Part shown: positions 1 to 14,301 of the stretch, piece by piece | Numbering within the stretch: the first letter of the stretch is position 1 | Layout of the letters: each line of letters begins with the position of its first letter | Source of the DNA: Escherichia coli | GTDB lineage: Bacteria > Pseudomonadota > Gammaproteobacteria > Enterobacterales > Enterobacteriaceae | Assembly: GCF_003334405.1 (NCBI RefSeq) | Contig: NZ_QOWM01000030.1 | Direction: 5' to 3' (one strand) | Length of the DNA stretch: 14,301 bases | Translations under genes and position numbers: made by a program | Notes under the pieces: model-generated | Seen by the model: the letters and a program-made list of their open reading frames with translations, nothing else | Databases searched by the model: none | What the model was told of the DNA's origin: nothing

Positions 1-1146
1 GCGCCAACCTGTGGCCTGTGCTGTAGCAATTTGAAGCTCACCAGATCCTACCTTTCTCCAGGTACCGGATTGGCACGAAAGTATTGCCCCTGTATTATCG
101 CGGCCTACAAGGCCGTTAGGCGAACATGATGCGCCAGCAACGGCAGTTCTTTCCAGTTGTAAGTATTCACCAGTATAAAGGCGACCATCAGCCCGAACAG
201 TACCGCCTTTCACCTGACCGCCGGTATAGATGCCCTTGTTGTTTACACTTCGAACCCATGATCCATCGGACATATAAAATCCGCCACCGTGAGTTTCATT
301 GAGCCAGCCTTTACTGTTACGAGTAATTAACCAACCATTATTACTTCTGATATCACCGCCAGCGGTGACATTTACGTCAAAGTTTCCGCTATTGCCTTTT
401 ACCTGACCGCTGAAAGTGCCATTTACACCATTCACATTGCCGCTGAAATTACCTGTCTGGGCATTTACTGCCCCAACGTTATTCAGGTTATTTGATCCCA
501 TATCAATGGCCGTGTGCATTTTGTTTAAGTCAGGGCGACCATTGACCTGGAATCTGTAAAGACGATCAGTGTCCTCAGCTGCACCACTAAGTTCATCTGT
601 CGATAACAATACGGCAATATGCCCGTTACCGCTTTTGGCACCATAATTACTTAAAGCTACTGACCAGGAACGTAATGCACCTGTGGCTGTTTTGCCGTCC
701 TGGATATATCCACCAAGACCAGTGGTAATATCCTTAGCCATCTGGATAAGTGCTTTCACTGGATAAGGGGTGCCACCACTGGATACAACCATTGCCTGTA
801 GTAATTCCGGGTTTTGGGCGTTTCGAACCACATATGCCTGTAACCGCTGCCCCTCACTGTTTGTCTCAGTAAACCCGCCGGACAAAAAGCCGGTATTTTT
901 CAGCATGGTTGTCGTGATGACGGCAGGGGTTGTTGTGGTACTACTGGTCTGGAGAGTCGTGTAGTTTTTCCCTATATAAGAGCGGGCCGCACTGGTCCAG
1001 TTGCTGACAAGACGTGCTTCAGTTTGCCACCCTTTGGTTTGAATATAGTCCTGCCATATGCCCGCTCCCCAGGCAATCAGGAGCATAACAATCAATAAAG
1101 CCGCGCCAGTTTCCAGCGATGCCCAGCCTCGGTCATATTTTTTCAT
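1..1146 (-). CDS. pilV: Type IV prepilin-like minor pilin/adhesin PilV, N-terminal constant region; 3' end lies beyond the window edge
   Basis: I translated the minus strand in this frame by hand at both ends (1146 to about 300, and 300 to 1) with no stop; the track omits it because it has no stop in-window. N-terminus MKKYDRG|[19 protein letters not shown] is a short-leader type IV prepilin signature (Gly at -1, Glu at +5, then a hydrophobic helix). The ATG at 1146-1144 overlaps the pilU stop (ATGA). Two Cys near the visible C-terminus (ASCSPNG...AILSCQSG). Last gene of a pilL-V array. Confidence 0.8.
58..76 (-). other. Candidate shufflon sfx 19-bp site-specific recombination site (minus strand GTGCCAATCCGGTACCTGG) inside the 3' part of pilV
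   Basis: The exact 19-mer is read directly and encodes S-C-Q-S-G-T-W at about PilV residues 357-363. It matches my recollection of the conserved 19-bp repeat bounding invertible shufflon segments in IncI plasmids (Rci recombinase target). Only one copy is visible because the window ends 57 bp further on. Confidence 0.5.
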
Positions 1147-1802
1147 CAGATTACCCATAGTGGTTGATAAAGATTATCCAGCAGCAAAAGGACATGGCCA
1201 AAACATAGCCATGGACCCAGAGGGCCTTCTTTATGCCCTTTTATGCACCATGTTGAATGCCATAAGACAAATCCTCCTGTACCCAGCAACACACACCATA
1301 TGGCGTTATATAACCCTGACCATGCGGTAATACCTGCAATAAGCCACAGGTCTCCAGTGCCAATATTAAGACGATGGCGGTTAACTAATTTATGAAGGCA
1401 GAATAAGACAATTGCAGCAGTGGCAAATTCTGTTGTACGGAACCACCATATATCAGTCGTGATTTGTGATAGCATTCCTGCAATTAAAAAACGCCGGGTG
1501 AATGTTCCTGGTAATAAACCTGTCAGTGCATCCGTTACCGCCATTTGCAGTATGAACGAAAGAATAAGGACAGCATGAATACGGTAGAGCAGTGGTGATG
1601 ATGATAAAATAATTAACGCCACAGCTATACTGTATAGCCATATTCCTGACAGAACAGCAGGGTGTGTCTTATACCAGAGATGTCCCGTATCAGATAAAAA
1701 ATAACGAACTCTGAATAGCAGAGTTCGTCCAATAATGGAAAATGTGAACATCAATGGCAGTATATAAACAGGGGATAGACTTATGCCTACGATTGTCTGC
1801 AT
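1146..1802 (-). CDS. pilU: Prepilin peptidase (A24-type, type IV prepilin leader peptidase)
   Basis: Polytopic membrane protein with two Asp-containing motifs (AVTDALTG and IGTGDLWL) like the catalytic Asp pair of prepilin peptidases. I prefer the ATG at 1802 (218 aa), which has AGGGAGG 6 nt upstream, over the track start at 1829, which lacks a usable RBS. Either start overlaps the pilT 3' end. Confidence 0.8.
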
Positions 1803-2347
1803 TGCCTGCCTCCCTGTCCGGGAAGACATATCCCTTTCATGTCACGATAAATTCTCCATATTTTATTGGCATATTGCTCTCTTGTTTCATGTCTGTCCTT
1901 ACGGAATCCGGCATTGTATGACCCAAGGCAATTCCAGCTGACGCCACATATCTGAAAATGTCTTGCCAGTATCCAGCTTCCTATATGGATATTAAGGCAT
2001 GGTTTGGTGATTAAATCCTCAGACTTTTTTATTACGCCCATGTTTATCAGCTTTGGAATATGGGTTGAGTTTATTTGCATCAACCCATAATCCGTGCTAC
2101 TGGCTTTACCTGTTTTTTTGTCCTTATTTATATTAATTGCGCCCGGCCTCAACGAAGATTCCCCGGCAGAAATAGCCTTCAATAATAATGGTTCAATTTG
2201 ATAGCGCGCGCCGGCAGCGGCAAAGCAATTGTCCCACTTGTTGGTCCAGATCTGTTTGGGGGCTACGTATGAAGCTCGGGCGGGTGGAATAAGAGAAAAA
2301 AGCAGGATTAACAAAATAAGTCTGAGGGGTACTGTACCCCCTGACAT
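1787..2347 (-). CDS. pilT: Secreted lytic transglycosylase (SLT domain)
   Basis: N-terminal signal peptide (MSGGTVPLRLILLILLFSLIPPARA), catalytic-type AGESS motif and DYGLMQIN motif characteristic of SLT lytic transglycosylases. AGGAG RBS 6 nt upstream of the ATG at 2347. Confidence 0.8.
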   Translation of the reverse strand: MSGGTVPLRLILLILLFSLIPPARASYVAPKQIWTNKWDNCFAAAGARYQIEPLLLKAISAGESSLRPGAININKDKKTGKASSTDYGLMQINSTHIPKLINMGVIKKSEDLITKPCLNIHIGSWILARHFQICGVSWNCLGSYNAGFRKDRHETREQYANKIWRIYRDMKGICLPGQGGRQCRQS

Positions 2348-2356
2348 TAAAACTCC

Positions 2357-2971
2357 TTAACCATTGATGGTGAAGATAAGTTTGTTTGTACCAGTGCTGC
2401 CATTATCTGCCTTGCATTGCGTACTGGCTTCTTCAGTAGTGACTTTTCCATCACTGTGAGCAGTACTGTTCAGGGTAATGCCGTTAGTTAAACCAGTTTT
2501 ACTGATCCGTGTGGCAATCTGGATACAGGCATCCTGTGGGACTTTATCATAGGTAACGGTAAAACCGTTGTTGAACCCTGATGTTGAAGCCGGGGCAACA
2601 GTTACAGCACCGCCCCATGCGTTATAGAGCGTTGCTGTACCAGATGTTTTGTCGCCCTGTACTGTCATCCCAGAGGGAACGGCCCCCATCTGAATGAGGG
2701 CACCTGTCATTTTGGCACTGCTGGTAAATGTATATCCATCGCTACCTTTTAGCAGGCTCTGGGCACTTGTGATAATTGTTTGTATATTTGCGGTTTCAGT
2801 TGCCACATTGGTTCTTGTACGTAACGCATACAAACTACCCAGAACAACGACTATAACAAAAAGAACAACGAGCGCTATTGTTCCCTGCTCCAAAATTCCC
2901 CATCCTTTATCATGAGGCTCATTCTTCTTATTATTTCCAGTTAAAGTGGCATTAATATTTTCTACTAACAT
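2357..2971 (-). CDS. pilS: Type IVb major prepilin with long leader peptide
   Basis: 23-aa hydrophilic leader ending DKG, then W-G-I-L-E (Glu at +5) and a hydrophobic helix TIALVVLFVIVVVLGSLYAL; two C-terminal Cys (QDACIQ...STQCKADNG) typical of a pilin disulfide loop. GAGGA RBS 5 nt upstream. Confidence 0.8.
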   Translation of the reverse strand: MLVENINATLTGNNKKNEPHDKGWGILEQGTIALVVLFVIVVVLGSLYALRTRTNVATETANIQTIITSAQSLLKGSDGYTFTSSAKMTGALIQMGAVPSGMTVQGDKTSGTATLYNAWGGAVTVAPASTSGFNNGFTVTYDKVPQDACIQIATRISKTGLTNGITLNSTAHSDGKVTTEEASTQCKADNGSTGTNKLIFTING

Positions 2972-2988
2972 AAATATCCTCGTTTTGT

Positions 2989-4086
2989 TTAAAAGTTACC
3001 CATGCTGTTGTCACTAATAGACTGAATATCCATAATGGCAAAAACCAGTAACATGAGAGACATGACAAGAAATATCAGCATAATTAAACGAATCACGTTT
3101 GCCCGTTTCTTTACACGTTGAAGTGTTTGACTAAGCCATCGTTGACCATAATTGCTGATTAGCTCTGTTGCGCCATCTCCCTGTAATAAAGACAGGAAGT
3201 TGGCTGCTTCCCTGGATGGGAACTGATAACCGCACTGACGCAAAGCCAGTCCAAGATGATCCCCCTGGCGGACGCGGTAAATAATGCTGTCAAGACGCGT
3301 GCTTAACCATGGTGATGCAAACTCCTGAAGAATGTTTAGTGAGTTGAGCGTCGTCATTTTGGCTTTCAGAAGTGCAGCCATATTCAGGAGAAATGTTGCT
3401 CCCTGTATATCCTGATAAATACTCCATGGCATTATCTTGTCGGCAAAAGTACGAACACTGTCAGGGCTTTTCCAGTTTGGCAGAGACCATGATATTAAAC
3501 CTGTGATCACTGCAAAAAGAACGGCACATATAGCGCCGTAATTATCGACAAAAACAGATAATCCATAAAGAAAACCAAGAGCACCACTCCATGAATCGGG
3601 GGAACTTATTTTGCTCAGTTCAGGTATTAGCTCTGTATTCAGAACATATAATGTCCCCGTCATCATGATTAACAATCCCACCGGATAAATAGCCATTTGC
3701 CATATAGCCTGATGGATTTGTTCTTTTGCATCTGTAAGAGTGGTGGCGAATTGCAGTGCATCCACAATTGAACCACTTCTTATCCCGGCGCTGATTACTG
3801 CGGCCTCTTCCTGAGGAACCCATAAACTAAGAGTATATTCCAGAGAGTTTTCGCCACTGTTTTCACGAAGAGACTCAATGCAGTCTGTGGCCAGTTCAGC
3901 AAAGGGATGCCATTTTCGTCCAAAGTCTGTCCAGGCATCCCGCATCTGTTCCAGTGCGGTCTTTAATGGCTGTTTATTTTCCAGCAGAAAACGCAGGGCT
4001 TCGTAAAACTGCACCCTGTAGGGGGCGCTGAACGTTTTTCTGACAATGAAACGCCTCAGCCGTTGACTGAAATTCATTTCACGCAT
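2989..4086 (-). CDS. pilR: Inner-membrane platform protein of type IV pilus/T2SS (GspF/PilC family)
   Basis: 365-aa polytopic membrane protein located directly downstream of the GspE-like ATPase, as in type IV pilus operons. Family assignment rests on position, size and hydropathy rather than a sharp motif. Confidence 0.75.
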   Translation of the reverse strand: MREMNFSQRLRRFIVRKTFSAPYRVQFYEALRFLLENKQPLKTALEQMRDAWTDFGRKWHPFAELATDCIESLRENSGENSLEYTLSLWVPQEEAAVISAGIRSGSIVDALQFATTLTDAKEQIHQAIWQMAIYPVGLLIMMTGTLYVLNTELIPELSKISSPDSWSGALGFLYGLSVFVDNYGAICAVLFAVITGLISWSLPNWKSPDSVRTFADKIMPWSIYQDIQGATFLLNMAALLKAKMTTLNSLNILQEFASPWLSTRLDSIIYRVRQGDHLGLALRQCGYQFPSREAANFLSLLQGDGATELISNYGQRWLSQTLQRVKKRANVIRLIMLIFLVMSLMLLVFAIMDIQSISDNSMGNF

Positions 4087-4098
4087 GTTGTTCTCCTG

Positions 4099-5652
4099 TT
4101 AGACATCATCGATGCTGAGGCGCTCGTCTTCGTCCAGAGGGATGATTCTGTCGGCTTCAAGAGGGTCTACCAGACCTTCATTGATACGGCGAAGAAGATG
4201 CTCTACACGACTGATGCCTTTCATGTTTTCCAGCCAGTATTTACGTGCTGCAACTTTGCCGCGTGTTTTCAGAATCTGAAATAAGCGGTTATCAGGTTCT
4301 ATCACCTCAGCAATTACAGTCCTGCCGGTGAGGCCTTTACCTATTTCACCGCGCTTTCTGCCGTTAATGATTACGTCGTGATTACATTCAGAGCATCCGT
4401 GAGGATTTCGGAACCAGATATTATCTGTACTGCAGAGTGAATCTTTATTGCAGTGCCGCTCAAGGTAATCACGCTCGTCGTCGCTAAGTTCAGGTGCTCG
4501 CGTTTCCCATGGAATACGGCAGGAGGGACACAGAGTTGGTACAAGGCGCTGGCTGATCATCCCAATCAGTAATTGCGCATCGCAAATAAGATCGGCATTC
4601 ATACCCATCGTAATCATCCGCTCCGGTATACCCAGAGCTGAGTTTGTATGTAATGTCGTCAGAACTATGTGCCCGGTCTGTGCCGCGTAGGTGGTTGACA
4701 TCATCGAGATAAGATCGCGCATTTCCCCTTCCATGATGGCATCAGGGTCAAGTCGCATTGCCGATGAAATAGCCCGACTCCATGCCAGTTTGACGGCATC
4801 TTCGTCGGATTTGTCGCAGATAATCGGAGTCTGTGTTGCTCCCAGTATCTGTCCTTCCAGCGGATCTTCGATTGTTAGCAGGTGTCGCCCCTGATTATCG
4901 TCAAGATATACACGGCAGGCGCTGCGTAACGTTGTCGATTTACCGGAACCGGTTGGACCTGACAGGACTATTTTTCCTTCCGGGCGGCGCAGCATTATGT
5001 TCAGCAACCGGATTTGTTCCGGGATAAAGCCCAGTTGTTTAAACGTGGGAACTTTATCTCCGTCATCGGGTATCAGGCGCATAACTGCAATCAGACCGTC
5101 TCCCGTAGGTCTGTGACTGTAGCGTGCACCAAATATTCCTATTTTTCGCATTAATTGTGGGGACAGGCGCGCATCCTGTTCCCTTTGAGGGAAGAAACTG
5201 GTTTCAGTGACATCAGCCATTGACAGAATGGCTGTTGCGCAAAGTGAATAGCCCAGTGCTGGTTGATCTTCATCTACAGTCTGCAGTTCACCGAATATTC
5301 TCATGCGAACTTTGAAAATAGACTCAGAAATTAAAAAATGAATATCTGAAGCACCAAGTTTTCTGGCCGTTTCAAAATAAGATAGAACTTTCTTCTCACT
5401 TTCACTGACATCAGCAAGATCTTTCAGATGAATAATTCGTTCTTTCGGGCCTCTGTTTTTTTCATCCTGACCTGCTTCCTGTAACTCCGACAACGAGACT
5501 ACTTTTGGGTTGATGCCCGGATATAATTTTAGCAGTTCCTGGAGATTACTTTGTACGTCAGGCCTTGTCCGCTGGTTTGTTTCTATAAGAATTTCATGGG
5601 TGTCTCCCCGGGATATAAAAAGGAGAGCATCCTTCAGATTATATTTATCCAT
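4099..5652 (-). CDS. pilQ: Type IV pilus assembly ATPase (GspE/PilB family secretion NTPase)
   Basis: Walker A LSGPTGSGKSTTL, His-box-like TLHTNSALG, and a tetracysteine motif CPSC...CSEC typical of GspE-family ATPases; 517 aa. Confidence 0.85.
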   Translation of the reverse strand: MDKYNLKDALLFISRGDTHEILIETNQRTRPDVQSNLQELLKLYPGINPKVVSLSELQEAGQDEKNRGPKERIIHLKDLADVSESEKKVLSYFETARKLGASDIHFLISESIFKVRMRIFGELQTVDEDQPALGYSLCATAILSMADVTETSFFPQREQDARLSPQLMRKIGIFGARYSHRPTGDGLIAVMRLIPDDGDKVPTFKQLGFIPEQIRLLNIMLRRPEGKIVLSGPTGSGKSTTLRSACRVYLDDNQGRHLLTIEDPLEGQILGATQTPIICDKSDEDAVKLAWSRAISSAMRLDPDAIMEGEMRDLISMMSTTYAAQTGHIVLTTLHTNSALGIPERMITMGMNADLICDAQLLIGMISQRLVPTLCPSCRIPWETRAPELSDDERDYLERHCNKDSLCSTDNIWFRNPHGCSECNHDVIINGRKRGEIGKGLTGRTVIAEVIEPDNRLFQILKTRGKVAARKYWLENMKGISRVEHLLRRINEGLVDPLEADRIIPLDEDERLSIDDV

Positions 5653-5662
5653 ATCACGTTAC

Positions 5663-6115
5663 TCAGAAAGTAAGGGTAGTGCCATCACTTAACGTGACGC
5701 CAGACAATGAGATCGACTTCACCGTGACGGATGTACCTGGAAGCTGGCTGCCAGTGGTGACGCTTGTCTGACGTCCATCAGCCATGCGAAGAACGGCATG
5801 AAGACGTTTATCTTTGCCGTTTATTTCCATAATGATGGGCAATTCTTTTCTGTTTTTCGGTGCCGTTTTCTCTGAAACTGATGGCAAGGGGGCGGTCACA
5901 CCAGAGAAACCTGAAACAGTTTCAGATGATGAAGTAACATCTGATTCTTCAAGTTGTTTCTGTAACTGTGCACCCTGAACTTTTGCCTGTAAAAGAATAT
6001 TCCGGTTTTGTTGTGCTTCAAGTTCTCCTATTGTGACAAGAGGTTGTGTTGTGGCAAATGAAAAACCAGAGAAGAAAAATATGGAAGGAATAATGAGTAA
6101 TTTACTTGGACGCAT
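5663..6115 (-). CDS. pilP: Pilus assembly protein PilP (secreted/periplasmic, function unknown)
   Basis: 150-aa ORF with N-terminal signal peptide (MRPSKLLIIPSIFFFSGFSFA); its start overlaps the pilO 3' end by 14 nt; position in the operon. Confidence 0.65.
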   Translation of the reverse strand: MRPSKLLIIPSIFFFSGFSFATTQPLVTIGELEAQQNRNILLQAKVQGAQLQKQLEESDVTSSSETVSGFSGVTAPLPSVSEKTAPKNRKELPIIMEINGKDKRLHAVLRMADGRQTSVTTGSQLPGTSVTVKSISLSGVTLSDGTTLTF

Positions 6116-7397
6116 ATATATGACCTTCTGAGGAATAACTGAAAGTACCGCCGTTTAATTCAAAATGGATATTGCTCAGACGGACGCCGGTATCCTGAAG
6201 TAAAGGGAAAAATTCATCAGGATTTACAGGAGTTGATAAACTGAACTGATATTCTTTCCATTTCTGAACAGGGGCTGGTTCACCATCGTTGCCTGGTAAT
6301 GGCTCCGGTATGGCTATTTCATTAATGGCCGGTGTTAACTGTTTTTTCTGAAACCACGTGAACACCCGCATCAGTTGTTCTGAGGGGGCCGGGACAGCCT
6401 CGTCCCTGCCGGGCAGGGACGGCAGTGGACGGGTTACAGAAACCTGGCGTGCACCATCTTTAAGGTTAAAGTCAGGAATAACACCAAAGATTTCTTTACT
6501 TCTTGCCAGAAAACCCTCAATGGTTCCTCCAGGCTGTCGTTCGTAAATCAGTGTGAATGTCTCAGGAGTACATGTTCCACCGGTAAGTTTCCAGCCTTCC
6601 AGTGCGACCGGTGACGGTTTTCGAAGGTCCGCGCAGGCTTTCAGAAAATCACTGATTACAGGTTGTGATGCCCATGGATGCGGGAGTTCTGGCGGTGGAT
6701 CGGGCTTTTTAAACTGCAATCTTGCCCGTGCAGCTATCTCCTCGGGCGTCGGTACGACATCCGGCTCTGGCTGAGTCATCCAGAATACAGTGCCTGCGCC
6801 GGCTGCTACTAAAAACAGTACGGCAGGCAGTGTGAATTTGCTGCGATTGCCGACAGTAAGTTTGCAACGGCGGAGATCTGCTGATGATAACCGGGTAATA
6901 ATACTTTCCCAGTTATCAGGATGTTCCAGAGACGATACAACCTGCCATTTTTCGGGGGGCTCTTCGTTCATCGCCAGAAAAAGGCTGACCTTTTGGGCAA
7001 CGTCGGCATCATTTCCTGATAAGTCAGCCATAACGGCAGGCTGGCCATTAATGGAAGCAAGGAATAAGAGCTCCTTATCGCTGTACCGGAAGACACCGTA
7101 TCCATTTCTGACCCATGAGCAGAAAGCCAGTGCCAGGGAAAAATAATGATTGCGTTCTGGCCTGGTCAGTATTCCTGTGCCGGTAAGGCGGCTGATCTTT
7201 CCACGGGAATTTCTGCTGCCTACAGTCACTTTCAGGGAGGTAAGCCGTCTGGGTTTTACATGAGACTTGTGTTTATGATGTGAGGGGACGCGCTGTTTTT
7301 TTACGACAGGAGTCCATTTAAGACAGGCAGCCCACACGCGATGATTTACTTTAGGATCTGCGAGAAGCACTACCGGGTTGATATCTTCATCAGCCAT
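6102..7397 (-). CDS. pilO: Pilus assembly protein PilO (function unknown)
   Basis: 431-aa ORF with AGGAGG RBS 6 nt upstream of the ATG at 7397; start overlaps the pilN stop by 8 nt; one internal hydrophobic segment (LPAVLFLVAAGAGTVFWM). Assignment by operon position and size. Confidence 0.7.
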   Translation of the reverse strand: MADEDINPVVLLADPKVNHRVWAACLKWTPVVKKQRVPSHHKHKSHVKPRRLTSLKVTVGSRNSRGKISRLTGTGILTRPERNHYFSLALAFCSWVRNGYGVFRYSDKELLFLASINGQPAVMADLSGNDADVAQKVSLFLAMNEEPPEKWQVVSSLEHPDNWESIITRLSSADLRRCKLTVGNRSKFTLPAVLFLVAAGAGTVFWMTQPEPDVVPTPEEIAARARLQFKKPDPPPELPHPWASQPVISDFLKACADLRKPSPVALEGWKLTGGTCTPETFTLIYERQPGGTIEGFLARSKEIFGVIPDFNLKDGARQVSVTRPLPSLPGRDEAVPAPSEQLMRVFTWFQKKQLTPAINEIAIPEPLPGNDGEPAPVQKWKEYQFSLSTPVNPDEFFPLLQDTGVRLSNIHFELNGGTFSYSSEGHIYASK

Positions 7398-9072
7398 TAT
7401 TGCCTCCTGACGGGAAAGTCGGGGTAATGATGATCACAAGTGTGCTGCGTTCATTTTTCCCGGTTTGTGAACCACCAAATAATGGATTTGCTGGCGTAAA
7501 CGTACCGGCTTTACTTGTCGTCGTATTGTTCTGATCGAAACCAGTAACGACAAGTGATTGCCCTTCTTTCAGATTGACCTTCTGGCTCAGTGAACGCAGT
7601 TTGGTATATGGCATTTCGATGTAACTGTTTCCGTCTTTTGACGTAAAGCTACGGATAGTTGGGGGATCAGACAGATTAAAGTTCATCTGCAACTGGAGAT
7701 TGCCTGTTTTCTGAATTAAAGGCAGCAGGGTCATATTGAATCCAGTGGTGATCATGCCCGGTGTTAATGTTGTTGTTGCTCCTACATCCGTAGTCGTAGT
7801 TGTTGCTGACTGGGCGACGTAAACTGTCTGATCTGCCATCTGGATAGGTACCGGCGTCAGGTTTGTGACAGTGCTTTCTTGTGAAGTTACAACGCTGACA
7901 TCGCCCTGTTCACTCAGTGCTTTAATCAGAAGGCTGGAACCGCTGAATTTGGCGGCATTCCCTGTTGCCGTATCCAGAATTGATACGCCTGCAGATGTAG
8001 CGCCTGTAAAATCTCCGCTTGCATTGTTCAACGTTGCTCCGGCGGAATGTAGCGATTTGTAAACAAGGTTCCAGTCCAGACCGAACTGCTCGTTTCTGGT
8101 ATTGCTGACGCTCAGAACCTGTACGTTCAGGGCTACCTGGCGGTTCATAATACTGTTTTGTTCGTCCACATATCGTGCGACGGCTTCCTGGACAGCAGGA
8201 GTATCAGTGACTGTCAGCGTTGAGCTCGATGCAGATAACCAGTAACGGCCTTTTTCTGGTGTCAGCATCGCTTCAATAGTTTTCCGGATGTCTTCATACA
8301 GGTCGTATTCCTGACCGACGGTTGTGCTCTGAGAGGACGTAGCATCACCGGATGCTGAGTTATCCTGGCCTCCTGTTGCCCCCATTGTGCTTGTTGAGCC
8401 AGAGCTGACGCTGGAACTGCTGCTGGTTTTGGTGTTCAGCATATGAAGTGGATACGTTCTGGTTTCAGTCAGATAGAATACAATCCGACCATTATCCATG
8501 CGCCAGTACAGACCGCTTCGGCTGGCCATCAGATCCAGAAGACCATTGATATCTCCCTGCCACATGAGGTTATTCAGCGTTAATGGCTGAGTGGAGGTAG
8601 TCATTGTTGTGCTGCCCAGGCTGCTTAACGGCAGACGACCATTTTCATCAGGTGCTGGTAGTGTCCCAGTCATCTGGCGGGTAGCGCCTCCTTCAAGAGT
8701 TGAATTGGCTGCGTCAGGGGTGATGATTACGGGGATGCCGCATACGGCAGTAATACGTTGCCCCAGTTCCTGTAGAGTGATCTCTCCTTTTCTTGCCTGC
8801 GTGATGTAGCAGGCCGGAGCTGTTTGTTTTTTCTCTCTTGATACCTGAGCGACCGGAACGGGGTTTATCCATTGATTATCGAGCCAGGTAAGAGCCTGTG
8901 ATTTGCGGGCAGAAAGGGCTGATACCTTTTCCCGTGCATGTGCTGAGTCTTCCTGTGCTTTTTTCTGCATTTTATTGATTTCGCTGAAAGTACATCCGGA
9001 GATGGAAAGAGCGACGGCGATCATGCAGGGGAGCACCGCCAGCTTCATTGAACGCTGGTGTGATTTTTTCAT
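7390..9072 (-). CDS. pilN: Secretin-family outer-membrane lipoprotein
   Basis: Lipoprotein signal with lipobox (AVALSISGC), C-terminal secretin-like region (...SLVVTGFDQNNTTTSKAGTFTPANPLFGGSQTGKNERSTLVIIITPT) and an internal Ser/Thr-rich linker; 560 aa. Start could alternatively be the internal Met at 9048. Confidence 0.75.
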   Translation of the reverse strand: MKKSHQRSMKLAVLPCMIAVALSISGCTFSEINKMQKKAQEDSAHAREKVSALSARKSQALTWLDNQWINPVPVAQVSREKKQTAPACYITQARKGEITLQELGQRITAVCGIPVIITPDAANSTLEGGATRQMTGTLPAPDENGRLPLSSLGSTTMTTSTQPLTLNNLMWQGDINGLLDLMASRSGLYWRMDNGRIVFYLTETRTYPLHMLNTKTSSSSSVSSGSTSTMGATGGQDNSASGDATSSQSTTVGQEYDLYEDIRKTIEAMLTPEKGRYWLSASSSTLTVTDTPAVQEAVARYVDEQNSIMNRQVALNVQVLSVSNTRNEQFGLDWNLVYKSLHSAGATLNNASGDFTGATSAGVSILDTATGNAAKFSGSSLLIKALSEQGDVSVVTSQESTVTNLTPVPIQMADQTVYVAQSATTTTTDVGATTTLTPGMITTGFNMTLLPLIQKTGNLQLQMNFNLSDPPTIRSFTSKDGNSYIEMPYTKLRSLSQKVNLKEGQSLVVTGFDQNNTTTSKAGTFTPANPLFGGSQTGKNERSTLVIIITPTFPSGGNNG

Positions 9073-9085
9073 GAATATATCCAGA

Positions 9086-9523
9086 TTAGTTAACGTAGAC
9101 GACAGAACCAGCAGTAATGCCTGCCGGGGGTGTCAGACCGGTTGCAGTTCCTGATAGCCAGGTGAGTTGCCCGTTTTGGAAGATCCCTATTAGTGCAGAA
9201 CCACGACTTTTTGAACGCAAAGTTTCAACAAGTCCTGGTTGTTCAGGCATCCATACCCACAGACGTCCCTGTTGTAACTGATGTTTAATTCGGGAGTCCG
9301 GAGTGACAGGGAGAGCCAGTTTATCTGAAGAAATTACTCCGTCCTGCTGGCCTGATACGTATCTGATATCATTGATTCTGTTAGCAATCATTAGTATCTG
9401 ACTTGCCCATACAGACGCACTTGCATATTGCTGGGCGTTCGTGGTTTCAGACATCTGCTGATTCTGGTAGCTTCCAGTGATAATCAGAATGGTCAGGCCG
9501 ACGGCCATGACCAGCCATCCCAT
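9086..9523 (-). CDS. pilM: Pilus assembly protein PilM (small membrane-anchored protein)
   Basis: 145-aa ORF with an N-terminal transmembrane segment (MGWLVMAVGLTILIITG); its start codon overlaps the pilL stop (TAATG at 9521-9525). Confidence 0.65.
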   Translation of the reverse strand: MGWLVMAVGLTILIITGSYQNQQMSETTNAQQYASASVWASQILMIANRINDIRYVSGQQDGVISSDKLALPVTPDSRIKHQLQQGRLWVWMPEQPGLVETLRSKSRGSALIGIFQNGQLTWLSGTATGLTPPAGITAGSVVYVN

Positions 9524-10590
9524 TAGCGACCATCCCTTGTATCAGAAACTGTAATGATGCACTGCATGCGAGAAGCCTGTGCGTATAAAGGTTTTTGCGC
9601 AGTCCGATATAACTCAAATACCTGCTCCATGGCTGATTCAAATGATCCCCGGAACATTAAAGGCGCATCCAGACGGTAATCGGTTACAGAAAGTGGCCAT
9701 ATGACCATCCAGTGCGTTGATGCCATGCTTTCGCATTTTGTTTCTTCTGCCCACTTGATAATGTTCTCTCTTAATGTGGTGCCTGCCGGCGCACGCCACT
9801 CTTTACCCTGAGATACCGGTTTAACAGGCGTTCCGGTCATGAGCGGGATAGACTTGACTGTGGAGCCGGTTGGAGTCGGGGTGGTGGCGGGCGTTGACGA
9901 AGATACGTTGTTTCCCCTGAATGGATTTCGTGGTTTGTTCTGGCTATTTGCTGTCGTTGGAGATTCAGGGGTAGTGGATGTGGTTACCATGGCTGCTGGC
10001 GAGATAGTGGTTGCCGTGTCCTGTGTCGGTGCAGCAGCTGATGTTGTGACGGTCAACGTTTTATTATCCCAGTCCAGATGGCCCCAGAGGTGTTGTTCTT
10101 CCAGCAACCGGTTCAGAGAACGGGTCCACTGATCATTGGCAGACCATGAAACCAGTTTGGTATTCAGCTTGGGCGTGGCTGCATTCTCTTGTCTGAATTT
10201 CCATCCTTCCGGTAGTAATGTTTTTATCCACTGACTGACGGTCCGGTTACGGGCCGTCGGCGATAGTGTTACAGGGGCGCTACCAGGCTTGCCTGTAATG
10301 ATTAACCGGGAGAAATTCTGACTTATTGTTGGTGAAGGTAACGGTCGGGATTCGCTAACAGGCTGTGCTGTTTTTACTGTCTCTGGCACGCTGACTCTCG
10401 GGGGCGGAGTTATTTTAGGTGGAGAAAGACGTTGTTGCGTAAGTGCCAGAACGCCAGCACTCTCACTGATTTGTCCGTCAACAAAAACCAGAGCAGGCGT
10501 ATCTGATGGTGCCACGTTATTACTGCCGGAAATTCCGGCACAGCCGGATAATAATGATGGCAGTATAAGTGTCAGATAGTTTTTTTTCAT
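9523..10590 (-). CDS. pilL: Pilus assembly lipoprotein PilL
   Basis: Lipoprotein signal with lipobox (LPSLLSGCAG); 355 aa; Pro-rich then Ser/Thr/Pro-rich low-complexity segment (residues about 181-258); GGAG RBS 8 nt upstream of the ATG at 10590. Confidence 0.7.
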   Translation of the reverse strand: MKKNYLTLILPSLLSGCAGISGSNNVAPSDTPALVFVDGQISESAGVLALTQQRLSPPKITPPPRVSVPETVKTAQPVSESRPLPSPTISQNFSRLIITGKPGSAPVTLSPTARNRTVSQWIKTLLPEGWKFRQENAATPKLNTKLVSWSANDQWTRSLNRLLEEQHLWGHLDWDNKTLTVTTSAAAPTQDTATTISPAAMVTTSTTPESPTTANSQNKPRNPFRGNNVSSSTPATTPTPTGSTVKSIPLMTGTPVKPVSQGKEWRAPAGTTLRENIIKWAEETKCESMASTHWMVIWPLSVTDYRLDAPLMFRGSFESAMEQVFELYRTAQKPLYAQASRMQCIITVSDTRDGR

Positions 10591-10623
10591 AACGGAGACT
10601 CCGTGTTCGTATATACGTGTTTG

Positions 10624-11214
10624 TTAATTGGTGTGAGGCGGCTGGAGAGGACGAATGACGACTGTCATTCCGTCCGAATGCAAATGCGGGAGAGACCACT
10701 GAAATAAGAGATATACAAAAGGAATTGATAATCTTTCATACAGACTTGTTTTCCGTGGGCATGTAATAACAGAGAAATTCAAACCATAAGATTCCAGTCT
10801 CTTTATAAGTTTATTTATTCTTGCAGGAGTAAAGAGATGTGAATGCATAACAATGGTTTCATCATTATTAATTGCTTTTGATATCAGAGAAAGTAACACA
10901 TCCCAGTGTTTCCTCATTGACTCCGGGCAACGTGTATCGGCATAGGGGCTAAGATGTATGCTTGATTCTTTACTGCCTTTTTTTTTCGTAAAGAATGTGA
11001 AGTTGTATTTAGATACAGACCTTACGATAAGAAGTACGCATCTGAAAAGTAGTGGGGAAAAGCAAATAATAACCACTATACAGAAATATAATATATAAGA
11101 TAGTGATATGTGGTCAGTGTATAGATAACGGAAGTATTGCCACGGGGTAGTGATGTACAGGCAAAAAGTACACCAAAGTAACCATAGATATAATGGTACG
11201 TTATTATTTTTCAT
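10624..11214 (-). CDS. pilK: Hypothetical membrane protein (two N-terminal TM helices plus soluble domain), possibly PilK-like
   Basis: 196-aa ORF immediately upstream of pilL on the same strand; its ATG overlaps the stop of the preceding ORF (ATGA at 11211-11214). Strongly AT-rich compared with the flanking pil genes. The pilK name is inferred only from position and size. Confidence 0.45.
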   Translation of the reverse strand: MKNNNVPLYLWLLWCTFCLYITTPWQYFRYLYTDHISLSYILYFCIVVIICFSPLLFRCVLLIVRSVSKYNFTFFTKKKGSKESSIHLSPYADTRCPESMRKHWDVLLSLISKAINNDETIVMHSHLFTPARINKLIKRLESYGLNFSVITCPRKTSLYERLSIPFVYLLFQWSLPHLHSDGMTVVIRPLQPPHTN

Positions 11215-11507
11215 ATTAGTTGACTTTTAATACTGTTTTCTATCACCACATTTTTATGTGTCTCATTTGGCACTTCGTACTGTTGGAAATATTGTTGGCG
11301 GCGGATGCGTGTCTGTTCACTGCTTTCTATTAACACCGCCATGGCGATTGCAAAGTATATGCAAATCAGGAAAATCCAGAACGCGTTTGGTATCTTCCAA
11401 AAAAGTGTGGACAGTTTGTTATGTGGTGAAACTAAAATCGGAGAAAGGATTCCACAGACAATCACAATAGCGATGGTTAATTTAACTAGAAAGAACATGG
11501 TAAACAT
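11211..11507 (-). CDS. pilJ: Hypothetical small membrane protein (two predicted TM helices), possibly PilJ-like
   Basis: I prefer the ATG at 11507 (98 aa, MFTMFFLVKLTIAIVIVCGI...), which has GGAG 7 nt upstream; the track start at 11564 is a TTG with no RBS. AT-rich. Translationally coupled to the downstream pilK-like ORF. Confidence 0.4.
   Translation of the reverse strand: MFTMFFLVKLTIAIVIVCGILSPILVSPHNKLSTLFWKIPNAFWIFLICIYFAIAMAVLIESSEQTRIRRQQYFQQYEVPNETHKNVVIENSIKSQLI
11453..11500. repeat. 48-bp direct repeat, copy A (inside the 5' coding region of the pilJ-like ORF)
   Basis: cacagacaatcacaatagcgatggttaatttaactagaaagaacatgg matches copy B at 11595-11642 at 44 of 48 positions, offset 142 bp. 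Confidence 0.8.
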
Positions 11508-11594
11508 CGTTAATCTCCATGATAAAAGGGAGAGAGGTAATAAAGAAAATAAAGATGGCAACAAACGGCTAAATTAAAATCGTTAAAAGGTGTA

Positions 11595-11642
11595 CACAGA
11601 CAATCGCAATCGCGATGGTTAATTTAACTAAAAAGAACACGG
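11595..11642. repeat. 48-bp direct repeat, copy B (intergenic, upstream of the pilJ-like ORF)
   Basis: cacagacaatcgcaatcgcgatggttaatttaactaaaaagaacacgg; similarity to copy A extends weakly a further ~12 bp to the left. On the minus strand it would encode a degenerate copy of the pilJ-like N-terminal helix (VFFLVKLTIAIAIVCV) without the ATG. Confidence 0.8.
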
Positions 11643-11682
11643 CCCCCACCCGTTTTGACGAGGTCTTTTGTTTTTGTTGTGT

Positions 11683-11937
11683 TTACGACAGCCAGTCCTG
11701 TAGATGCTGATGGCGGGAGCTGCTGCCCTTGTGCCAGCGGCAGTGGCTGCCGGGAGCACGCTCCAGTCGGAACAGAAATCGGTTGTCGCGTAGTACCACC
11801 ACGATACAGTTATCCGGCGTGCAGAAACGTCGGGCAAGCTCATCGGGGTCTGTCGGTGTTTTCGTTGAAAACAGCCTGCGTTTGCAGTGTGCGTCGACGA
11901 CCAGTATTTGCAGTCGTCCGGGATGTTGCTGTGGCAT
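11683..11937 (-). CDS. Hypothetical small protein (84 aa), Cys/His-containing, GC-rich; possibly PilI-like
   Basis: Internal ATG at 11937 is preceded by GGAAGGAG with a 6-nt spacer, a much better start than the track ATG at 11982. The ORF is GC-rich, unlike the adjacent AT-rich block. No recognisable domain. Confidence 0.4.
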   Translation of the reverse strand: MPQQHPGRLQILVVDAHCKRRLFSTKTPTDPDELARRFCTPDNCIVVVLRDNRFLFRLERAPGSHCRWHKGSSSRHQHLQDWLS

Positions 11938-12108
11938 CAAAGACTCCTTCCGGAACGGGAAAAGAAGCAGCTGTACCGTCATAACTGCACGTACCGGTTG
12001 CGAAAAAACGGCACAAGCGAGTAGTGACAGAAAGAATGTCGGAAACGGCAGGAAGGGCGGTACAGGCTGCGAAGACTGGAAACGGGGTATGCCGGGGATT
12101 ACACATCC

Positions 12109-12792
12109 TCAGTGTAATGTGATAGTCGTCTGTTCCTGTGTTGCACCCCAGACATCTTCTGGCAGGCTGGGCAGCCCGATAAATAGGGTGTGAAAGAGGG
12201 TTTCTCTGCGTTCGATCCCGAATTGATGTTCGTATCCTCTCACCACCTGAAATCCTTCGTCGGAGAATATTAACTCTGCCGTTTCCAGAAGCTGCATAGT
12301 TTTGCGGTGTAGTGGAGTGATCAGCTGCAACGTAACTGGTGCCCTCATATCGCCTGTCGGTAGAAAACACTCTTCGGTGCGACTTAGTTGTAGCAGATGG
12401 CGTTTCCCGGAACAGGCCCGTTCAATGGATTCATTGAACACCCTCTCAGGCCATGGGCAGACATAAGTGCGCCAGCCTGCTTTCTGTAATTTACCCAGCG
12501 CAGCCCGAAAACGAAACAACGGACATTCCCCGACAGTGGCAGAGCTGAGAAAGAGCGTATTCAGCGTTCCGATGATGGGAATATTGCGATCTTTTTCGGT
12601 CAATGCTTTTAACGCCATGATTTCGCCAGGGAGACTACGGAACTCAGGATGTCTGCTGGCACCAGAAAGCCATTCAAGCAGGTAATGCCGTAATCCGGTT
12701 TCACTGGTTATATTGTGGTTTTCCTGTGCCGTTTTCAGGGCATTCAGTGCACACCAGAGCAACTGGCGCACGGGATGTTCTGTCGTGGTCAT
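12109..12792 (-). CDS. Hypothetical protein (227 aa), possibly a transfer-region regulatory protein (TraC-like)
   Basis: ATG at 12792 with AGGA 7 nt upstream; lies directly downstream of the NusG-paralog gene and its terminator. I recognise no motif; the TraC-like suggestion is based only on remembered IncI1 gene order. Confidence 0.5.
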   Translation of the reverse strand: MTTTEHPVRQLLWCALNALKTAQENHNITSETGLRHYLLEWLSGASRHPEFRSLPGEIMALKALTEKDRNIPIIGTLNTLFLSSATVGECPLFRFRAALGKLQKAGWRTYVCPWPERVFNESIERACSGKRHLLQLSRTEECFLPTGDMRAPVTLQLITPLHRKTMQLLETAELIFSDEGFQVVRGYEHQFGIERRETLFHTLFIGLPSLPEDVWGATQEQTTITLH

Positions 12793-13010
12793 GCGAATGT
12801 CCTACTGTGAGATGAAAAGAAGACCGGTATCCGTTCTCTCCGCCACACGTGATGGCACGGGCCGGCCTTTGATAAAACGAATCAATACTCTGGGGTGAAG
12901 CCTTTTATTTCTTTCGCCATTAAGAAATACACAGTTCCATCAAAAGACAGGGGGAGTCCATGGTGGGGATGGCTCCGTGCAGGCTTCACTCCAGAATATT
13001 CTCTTGAATT

Positions 13011-13040
13011 GAAAAAAGCCCGGCCCGAAGGCCGGGAAAT
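13011..13040 (-). terminator. Rho-independent terminator downstream of the NusG-paralog gene
   Basis: Perfect 7-bp GC-rich stem (cccggcc at 13019-13025, ggccggg at 13030-13036) with a 4-nt loop; on the minus strand it is followed by a TTTTTT tract (13012-13017). It sits 6 bp after the stop of the 13046..13600 ORF. Confidence 0.6.
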
Positions 13041-13045
13041 ACTGG

Positions 13046-13600
13046 CTATGGGATGTTTACAAGGCGCTCCATAAAGCCGTGATGTTCGGCATTTGATACC
13101 AGTTCCAGGAGCAGGGATATCCTCGACTCAGGCTGGAGAGTATTTTCCATTCTGAGGAGATACTGATATTGTGCTTTTGTCAGCCATATGCTGGAAGCCG
13201 CATTCAGCTCTTCCCTGGCTCCCGGATTTAGCACAGGGTCCGGGTAAATCTTCATTAATCCATCAACAATATCTTTATTGATGGGTTTTATTTCACCGCC
13301 AAACTTCACGAAATCAATGAAGGCGCTATGTCGACGTAATGCCGATACTGGTTGAATGTCAAAATTAGCCAGAATAAAAAAGTACCCAGGAAAAATAGCG
13401 AATATTCTTTCACGGTAACAGCACCTGGAGTCTGCCCGTCTTATCTTTCTTGTTATTAATGGAGTCCATGGTACGACGTTTTGCTCATTCAGCCATGAGA
13501 ATAAAGATTCTCTGTTTTTGCCGGCTGTATTATATTGCGCAAGATACCAGTTCCGGTTATTCAGGTGTTCTATATTCACGAAGTTCAACGCTCCGCGCAA
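13046..13600 (-). CDS. NusG/RfaH-family transcription antiterminator paralog (TraB/ActX-like)
   Basis: Recognisable similarity to the RfaH N-terminal domain: NWYLAQY (compare RfaH SWYLLYCK), FPGYFFILANFD (compare FPNYLFVEFD), FVKFGGEIKPI (compare FVRFGASPAIVP). The start is uncertain: the track start at 13600 is a TTG, and a GTG at 13579 is an alternative. Confidence 0.75.
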   Translation of the reverse strand: MRGALNFVNIEHLNNRNWYLAQYNTAGKNRESLFSWLNEQNVVPWTPLITRKIRRADSRCCYRERIFAIFPGYFFILANFDIQPVSALRRHSAFIDFVKFGGEIKPINKDIVDGLMKIYPDPVLNPGAREELNAASSIWLTKAQYQYLLRMENTLQPESRISLLLELVSNAEHHGFMERLVNIP

Positions 13601-13994
13601 AACCGATCCATGATGGACGATTTTGCGATGTCAGGCGAATATGCTAAATCATATGTCTGAAGCAGTGTCCAGCCCATATCTGGATAAACTGCAGTTCTGA
13701 CAGGCATATAACCAGCAGACTCTAGTACGTTCTGTATCGGTGATTTGGCGAACTCACAGATAAAGAACGGCTAAGCACTAATATCAGCAATACAGTGGCA
13801 CAGTATTGTGATACGCGAAATAAAACATCAGCACGTCAGTTCAGAGTAAGGTCGCCATATATCGGGCATGAGCCAGATACAAATAACTGGGACACCGTCT
13901 GAAGTGATTTGCTTTATTAAAGTAACTTGTGCTTGGTGTTTATGTTTATCAATTTGGGATCGCCTGTAAAGTGCAAAATGCAATTTCCATGAAA

Positions 13995-14016
13995 GTGTCC
14001 CCTTTAATGGGGACAC
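13995..14016 (-). terminator. Stem-loop (possible terminator) immediately downstream of the LuxR-type regulator gene
   Basis: Perfect 8-bp inverted repeat gtgtcccc / ggggacac with a 6-nt loop, 4 bp after the stop codon at 14021-14023; on the minus strand only a short U-tract follows (TTTCAT), so terminator function is uncertain. Confidence 0.35.
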
Positions 14017-14020
14017 CTGT

Positions 14021-14301
14021 TCACATTTTTTCGTTTTCTTTAGCTGTATTGCTAATCATGAAAACGAAAGTTCGCATCAGCACAGCAGAGCGAAGTGCAT
14101 CATATCCTTCCAGATTTAAATTCTTCAGGCTTCGCTTCAGGTAGGTTCGTACCGTTTCGGGAGAAAGCCGGCAGTTCTGGGCAATGGCGTCGTAAGGAAC
14201 ACCCATTGCGTAAAAAACGCAGACTGAGGTAGCCTGAGTTTAACGGACACTCCTTCCTGAAATAGAATGGCATCAGAAGGAGCTAATAATGAGCAGAAAA
14301 A
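14021..14301 (-). CDS. LuxR/GerE-type helix-turn-helix transcriptional regulator, C-terminal part (N-terminus probably beyond the window edge)
   Basis: YDAIAQNCRLSPETVRTYLKRSLKNLNLEG fits the LuxR-type HTH pattern (compare GerE KEIASELFISEKTVRNHISNAMQKLGV). The frame stays open upstream of the track ATG (14206) to the window edge by my hand translation, so the true start is unresolved. Confidence 0.5.

Follow-up and report, generated by a model that had tools for sequence, protein, structure and literature searches.

Work characterising the R64-type shufflon dates back to 1986-87. An rci gene that adjoins the shufflon and encodes a tyrosine recombinase with a C-terminal extension is one of its defining features. 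In the IncI1 plasmid R64, the system comprises the tyrosine recombinase Rci, seven sfx sites, segments A-D, and the PilV variants A, A', B, B', C, C' and D', and the seven alternative PilV C-termini of the R64-type shufflon have been described as such (PMC5430464). The site used by Rci in R64 is asymmetric and 31 bp long, a 7-bp core separating a left arm of 12 bp, which is not conserved, from a right arm of 12 bp, which is (PMC11852207, PMC9045228); the crossover is located in the core, and three variable base pairs occupy positions 7-9 of the right arm (PMC9045228). Of the variants, PilV B' is reported to bind GlcNAc(alpha1-2)Glc of the recipient LPS (PMC5430464).

From the R64 literature, Rci would be expected to bind with specificity to the conserved right arm and without specificity to the left arm. 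Strands would be exchanged in the core GTGCCAA of any pair of sfx sites in inverted orientation, with the asymmetry of the site limiting the reaction to inversion. Each inversion would flip one or several of the DNA segments downstream of pilV and would fuse a different C-terminus of 73-117 aa to the constant 357 residues of PilV. According to the same body of literature, this change would alter the choice of recipient LPS structure to which the tip of the thin pilus binds during liquid mating.

Work on other plasmids has extended the picture in two ways. First, the sfx consensus is shared between IncI1 and IncI2 shufflons (PMC9045228). Second, heterogeneity of the shufflon within clones is a known assembly problem, and the usual cause of contig breaks at this locus (PMC5430464); the problem was also raised by Brouwer et al. 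(2015), going by the citation in PMC7695270.

Here, we describe a contig from Escherichia coli that ends in such a locus. The window, meaning the whole stretch of DNA that was analysed, is the entire contig QOWM01000030.1 (14,301 bp) of the draft assembly GCA_003334405.1. With high confidence, we assign positions 58-88 of its minus strand to an IncI1-type shufflon, as the sfx site next to pilV, with variant B' joined to pilV and with the contig broken at that point, most likely by the presence of several shufflon arrangements.

Comparison with described shufflons

The contig element is a canonical R64-type IncI1 shufflon that has every defining feature visible on a contig of this extent; the remaining defining features are found in relatives at about 99% identity. 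Like the window, R64 has a pilV-proximal 31-bp site that is identical save for the right-arm triplet, a constant region at 99% identity, a B' start at 100% identity, and a collinear pil operon. The two differ in that the R64 record joins segment A to pilV (giving the 474-aa form), whereas the window joins B'; in that rci and the remaining sfx sites are on the R64 record but off the contig here; and in that R64 traD is missing from the window, while pilJ/pilI are 87-90% identical.

The IncI1/IncI-gamma plasmids of the ESBL era, namely AHB21 plasmid 3, pSL476_91 and pC60-108, are 98.9-99.2% identical to the window over 1-14225 and have the same pil genes, rci and sfx sites. Unlike the window, they show another shufflon arrangement or other segments, with seven, two (segment B only) and at least four sfx sites, respectively; in addition, they have no IS600 in traA and have kept a traD-like gene of about 620 bp. 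The IncI2 shufflons of R721 and TP114 work by the same principle and share the conserved 13-mer GTGCCAATCCGGT, but have other right-arm triplets, a 345-aa constant region and other segment sets (PMC9045228). The window is not a member of the IncI2 group.

The sfx site

The 19-mer GTGCCAATCCGGTACCTGG lies on the minus strand at 58-76, exactly where the original prediction had placed it. It is the sole match in the 14,301-bp window when up to three mismatches are allowed, and its chance expectation is 0, as estimated from 200 dinucleotide-preserving shuffles of the window. No further sfx copy was found in the window at the same tolerance, and the contig ends 57 nt past the single copy. The proposal that the 19-mer is the sfx repeat has held up well, in that three of the seven sites between rci and pilV in R64 carry precisely this 19-mer. 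When the published anatomy of the R64 site (PMC11852207, PMC9045228) is applied to the window, as was done in assigning the arm and core coordinates of Table 1, positions 58-88 display the GTGCCAA core, the conserved right arm TCCGGTNNNTGG and the non-conserved left arm by which an sfx site is defined. The variable triplet at right-arm positions 7-9 is ACC.

Table 1. Coordinates of the features assigned in the window
Feature	Position	Strand	Details
B' variant, first 19 codons unique to this PilV C-terminus	1-57	minus	Cut off by the contig end
sfx, full site	58-88	minus	31 bp; GGCAATACTTTC GTGCCAA TCCGGTACCTGG
sfx right arm, TCCGGTACCTGG	58-69	minus	12 bp; conserved, putative Rci-binding arm; part of the invertible segment
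sfx core/spacer, GTGCCAA	70-76	minus	7 bp; includes the Cys358 codon TGC
sfx left arm, GGCAATACTTTC	77-88	minus	12 bp; non-conserved arm, inside the pilV constant region
pilV constant region	77-1146	minus	Codons 1-356 and the first two bases of codon 357
pilU, prepilin peptidase	1146-1829	minus	ORF list; start annotated in relatives at 1802; Peptidase_A24 on the source contig
pilT, pilS, pilR, pilQ, pilP, pilO, pilN, pilM, pilL, pilK, pilJ, pilI	1787-11843	minus	ORFs, collinearity with R64, annotation of relatives, Pfam

The left arm is identical at the pilV-proximal sfx sites of R64, pSL476_91, pC60-108 and AHB21 plasmid 3 (locus L006), and the core is invariant at every sfx site of R64, of L006 and of the compared loci L001 and L002. 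The right-arm triplet of the pilV-proximal site tracks the joined segment, being ACG in the R64 record and ACC in the window. A fixed left arm combined with a segment-dependent triplet is what a crossover in the core predicts, since the mobile DNA would then begin in the core and the right arm would move together with its segment. The extent of the mobile DNA must be amended on this point: the 57 nt to the left of the 19-mer do open the B' variant as predicted, but the invertible DNA consists of 1-69 plus part of the core, and not of those 57 bp alone.

The pilV reading frame

The pilV ORF runs on the minus strand from an ATG at 1146 to base 1, spanning 382 codons with no stop. It is still open at base 1, confirming that the window ends within pilV, and the partial gene at the contig edge is an assembly break as opposed to a pseudogene. 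Annotation of relatives, Pfam and the leader place the product in the class of type IVb minor prepilins or pilus-tip adhesins, and it is 99% identical to a protein annotated as 'shufflon system plasmid conjugative transfer pilus tip adhesin PilV', a name currently in use at NCBI. Residues 33-361 match the complete model (1-324 of 324; E=3.8e-186) of the Pfam family Shufflon_N (Bacterial shufflon protein, N-terminal constant region). That match stops at residue 361, in good agreement with the expectation that the constant region ends at about residue 360. An NCBIfam HMM scan of the partial PilV and of PilU matched no family.

The N-terminus of PilV has a prepilin-type leader ending in Gly (MKKYDRG, followed by WASLE), with Glu at +5 and then a hydrophobic N-terminal helix. 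With this leader, the Glu at +5, the hydrophobic helix and an adjoining A24 prepilin peptidase, PilV conforms in sequence to a type IVb pilin, and its cleavage is predicted. Two plus-strand ORFs in this region (770-964 and 1058-1330) are antisense to pilV and were set aside as unsupported.

Across the sfx site, the reading frame is CTT TCG TGC CAA TCC GGT ACC TGG AGA, or L S C Q S G T W R. The 19-mer spans the third base of codon 357 to Trp363 and encodes Cys358-Gln-Ser-Gly-Thr-Trp363, such that the ORF reads through sfx in frame at the end of the constant region, as is needed for a swap of the C-terminus. With the core and right arm in frame (CQSGTW), every inversion would provide PilV with a different C-terminus. 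The partial PilV has two cysteines only, Cys341 and Cys358, and the second of these is indeed encoded by the repeat, at bases 2-4 of the 19-mer.

The B' variant and the other PilV C-termini

The variant joined to pilV in the contig can be assigned to B' by its identity to known forms. A full B' variant is 87 aa long when counted from Cys358, and the window holds the first 25 of these residues. All 25 are identical to those of the R64 B' ORF and of the 444-aa PilV of pSL476_91 (P0002), which corresponds to UniRef/Swiss-Prot SHU4_ECOLX, 'Shufflon protein B''. At the nucleotide level, the B' end is 100% identical over 76-77 nt to the end of segment B in R64 (L005 8658-8733), pC60-108 and L006.

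When the window PilV is aligned with four natural forms of 444, 474, 444 and 456 aa, the sequences are nearly invariant up to W363 and cannot be aligned beyond that residue. Moreover, each of the seven R64 sfx sites, when read in the frame of the window, opens an ORF of 73-117 aa starting with CQSG(T/R)W. These seven ORFs bear out the earlier expectation of a Cys common to all C-terminal variants, and Cys358 is common to them because its codon sits in the sfx core itself. B' is just one among several states of pilV.

Shufflons and recombinases in related plasmids

In PLSDB, 1,651 plasmid records match window positions 1-1300. Almost all are conjugative (MOBP/MPF_I) plasmids from Escherichia, Salmonella or Shigella, and the matches consist of an annotated shufflon PilV followed by a prepilin peptidase. 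In R64 (NC_005014.1), the pattern GTGCCAATCCGGTNNNTGG occurs exactly seven times, in both orientations, within 1.9 kb between rci and the pilV constant region, and the triplets found there other than ACC are CGG, ACT and ACG. The closest relative, plasmid 3 of E. coli AHB21 (NZ_OZ547228.1; 98.9% identity), shares all seven sfx sites, ordered and oriented differently, and rci adjoins them. More generally, relatives at 98.9-99.2% identity carry inverted copies of the 19-mer.

All four of the relatives that were read to the far side of the shufflon, namely R64, pSL476_91, AHB21 plasmid 3 and contig JMGS01000015, have a tyrosine recombinase of 384 aa (Pfam Phage_integrase, E=1.2e-23) directly past it. 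No rci was found within the window, which is collinear with the pilV-traA region of R64, a region that holds no recombinase.

Breakpoints of homology also fall at the site. When R64 is compared with the window, 57-1300 aligns to the pilV constant region, whereas 1-76 aligns 1.4 kb away, beside rci. The alignments of pC60-108 and L006 are split in the same way as that of R64, and pSL476_91 is collinear across the site. Against other plasmids, BLAST breakpoints lie at window 56-77, with alignments ending at query 56-58 or at 76-77. In a sample of 60 plasmids evenly spaced among the 1651 that matched, 1-1300 was found in two separated pieces in 18, and the best alignment stopped at query 56-58 in 29. 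Structural heterogeneity with breakpoints at sfx was, in other words, observed across plasmids.

At a greater distance, pilV genes with 77-78% identity on distant plasmids (H123-H132, compared with window 63-207) start aligning at window 63-64, the edge of the 13-mer GTGCCAATCCGGT. By this comparison of sequences, the sfx core and the proximal part of the right arm can be considered conserved past the close IncI1 relatives.

The contig ends and the probable cause of the break

At either end of the contig, the repeat sequence is exactly 77 nt long, belonging to the shufflon at the left end and to IS600 at the right. Positions 1-77 are composed of the B' end, the sfx 19-mer and one additional nucleotide, and are identical to an alternative shufflon context in L006. 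That context, ...ctaC-GTGCCAA, is found in both L006 and pC60-108, again with 77 nt identical. Judging from its 77-nt repeat ends, the sequence fits a complete k=77 de Bruijn contig that was broken at branching nodes; on the left, the assembler would have stopped at a 77-nt node (B' end, sfx and 1 nt) that it met in more than one context. A 77-mer containing 57 nt of unique B' sequence together with sfx branches only if reads reach more than one left arm, and the break is thus an indirect indication of several arrangements in the culture. Most likely, then, the sequenced culture held several shufflon arrangements. What counts against this explanation is that the contig has one sfx site, no rci and no second segment; we infer the presence of rci and of the other segments in the source strain, the activity of the shufflon there, and the applicability of the mechanism, which itself comes from the R64 literature.

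An alternative that we consider unlikely, although it survives better than the others, is that of a frozen or relic shufflon, in which sfx and B' are real and pilV-B' is fixed, rci having been lost or inactivated or one segment only being left. Reduced shufflons of this sort do occur: the single-segment pSL476_91 (B only) has just two sfx sites, and segment-B-only shufflons are present in several pST12/IncI1 plasmids (PMC7695270). Other decay is present in the window as well, in the form of IS600 in traA and the deletion of a traD-like gene. A fixed junction, however, would constitute a 77-mer with a single continuation and would give the assembler no cause to stop one base past sfx, and the break in fact coincides with the alternative ...ctaC-GTGCCAA context of L006 and pC60-108. 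Furthermore, the single-segment plasmids retain rci and two inverted sfx sites and can still flip between B and B'.

Less probable still is a break that arose from two IncI-type plasmids or two strains in the sample, each with its own fixed arrangement and with no ongoing inversion. A de Bruijn graph would contain the same branching node either way. Nevertheless, IncI1 plasmids are incompatible with one another. Moreover, the assembly follows one unbroken path through the remainder of the 14.3-kb contig, and the usual cause reported for such breaks is shufflon heterogeneity within the clone (PMC5430464). Finally, that the 19-mer is a chance resemblance within a pilin gene, with no function in recombination, can be dismissed as vanishingly improbable, since, even with a single copy in the window, none is expected in the shuffles, the left arm and core are identical to those of the pilV-proximal sfx of R64, and the homology breakpoints fall at the site (more than 1000 plasmids matched; 60 of the 1651 sampled).

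With several arrangements in the culture as the preferred reading, the contig resembles many others. In the assembly collection, 139 blocks contain the partial product of 87 aa whose first residue is the sfx Cys; the longest contig is shorter than 2 kb in 136 of these. All ten of the contigs that were fetched begin at C-GTGCCAA or GTGCCAA, and several of them also end at an sfx site. In GCA_000687045.1, three contigs share the same B' sfx start and continue into pilV, into rci, or into the D-segment and rci.

Public databases also hold many 'partial' PilV proteins of 354-397 aa (P0008, P0009, P0010 and P0015 in the PilV cluster), and many short public contigs (loci L009-L018) start or stop exactly at sfx. 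These partial PilV records and sfx-bounded contigs are systematic assembly breaks and a trace of shufflon heterogeneity within samples.

All of this has been described before: the shufflon system, the sfx site, the recombinase, the PilV variants and the assembly artefact as well. Short-read assemblies routinely break at the pilV shufflon, and the finding, while right, is an ordinary one that matters little beyond annotation. In practical terms, comparative and SNP analyses of IncI plasmids should mask the shufflon region.

The remainder of the contig

The whole window is collinear with pilV-pilI, traC, traB and traA of IncI1-type plasmids, the best records being 98.9% identical. Identity to R64 is 98.1-99.2% over most of the window, with the pil genes at 98.1% and collinear up to 11223. 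Immediately upstream of pilV is pilU, the TGA stop of which overlaps the pilV ATG by one base (ATGA, minus strand, 1144-1148); this arrangement suggests that translation of the peptidase and of the minor pilin may be coupled. The genes from pilT to pilI represent the remaining part of the IncI1 thin-pilus (type IVb) operon which, as assigned from homology, builds the pilus that displays PilV.

The right end of the contig, 14225-14301, is the left end of IS600 (IS3 family), an element that starts with TGAGGT, as seen from the terminal inverted repeat TGAGGTAGCC and from the start of orfA (MSRK). The insertion interrupts a small helix-turn-helix gene that is annotated as TraA in IncI1 plasmids. 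Among 5,426 complete E. coli genomes, 3,057 contain IS600. A search of PLSDB for a complete plasmid sharing the IS600/traA junction found none (0 records covering at least 80% of the junction query), and the junction was likewise not found in the complete E. coli genomes, where the best matches end at 14225. Since there is no complete plasmid with this junction, the left-hand continuation of the contig cannot be read from one.

Relative to L006 (16993-17613), approximately 620 bp are absent at window 11994-12086, a stretch that encodes a hypothetical traD-like gene of 183 aa in the closest relatives. In L006, two direct repeats share 67 identical bp; the junction in the window is a hybrid of the two, and the loss looks like a deletion by recombination between them. 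A collapsed repeat in the assembly was considered as another source of the gap and is unlikely, given that the identical repeat of 67 bp is shorter than the inferred k of 77.

Together, the IS600 insertion in traA and the deletion of the traD-like gene may reflect a plasmid that is decaying. It is conceivable, as a tentative suggestion that falls somewhat short of our favour, that the contig represents an IncI1-type lineage that is absent from the complete plasmids of PLSDB and RefSeq E. coli, with IS600 in traA, a deleted traD-like gene and a shufflon that was still rearranging in culture. If so, Rci-driven switching of pilV would persist while insertion sequences erode the leader of the transfer region.

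The region of pilJ and pilI, at 11224-12105, is 87-90% identical to R64 and is missing about 220 bp of the R64 sequence, whereas identity reaches 98-99% in the pil and tra genes on either side. On these identities, 11224-12105 can be read as a mosaic segment in the leader of the pil operon.
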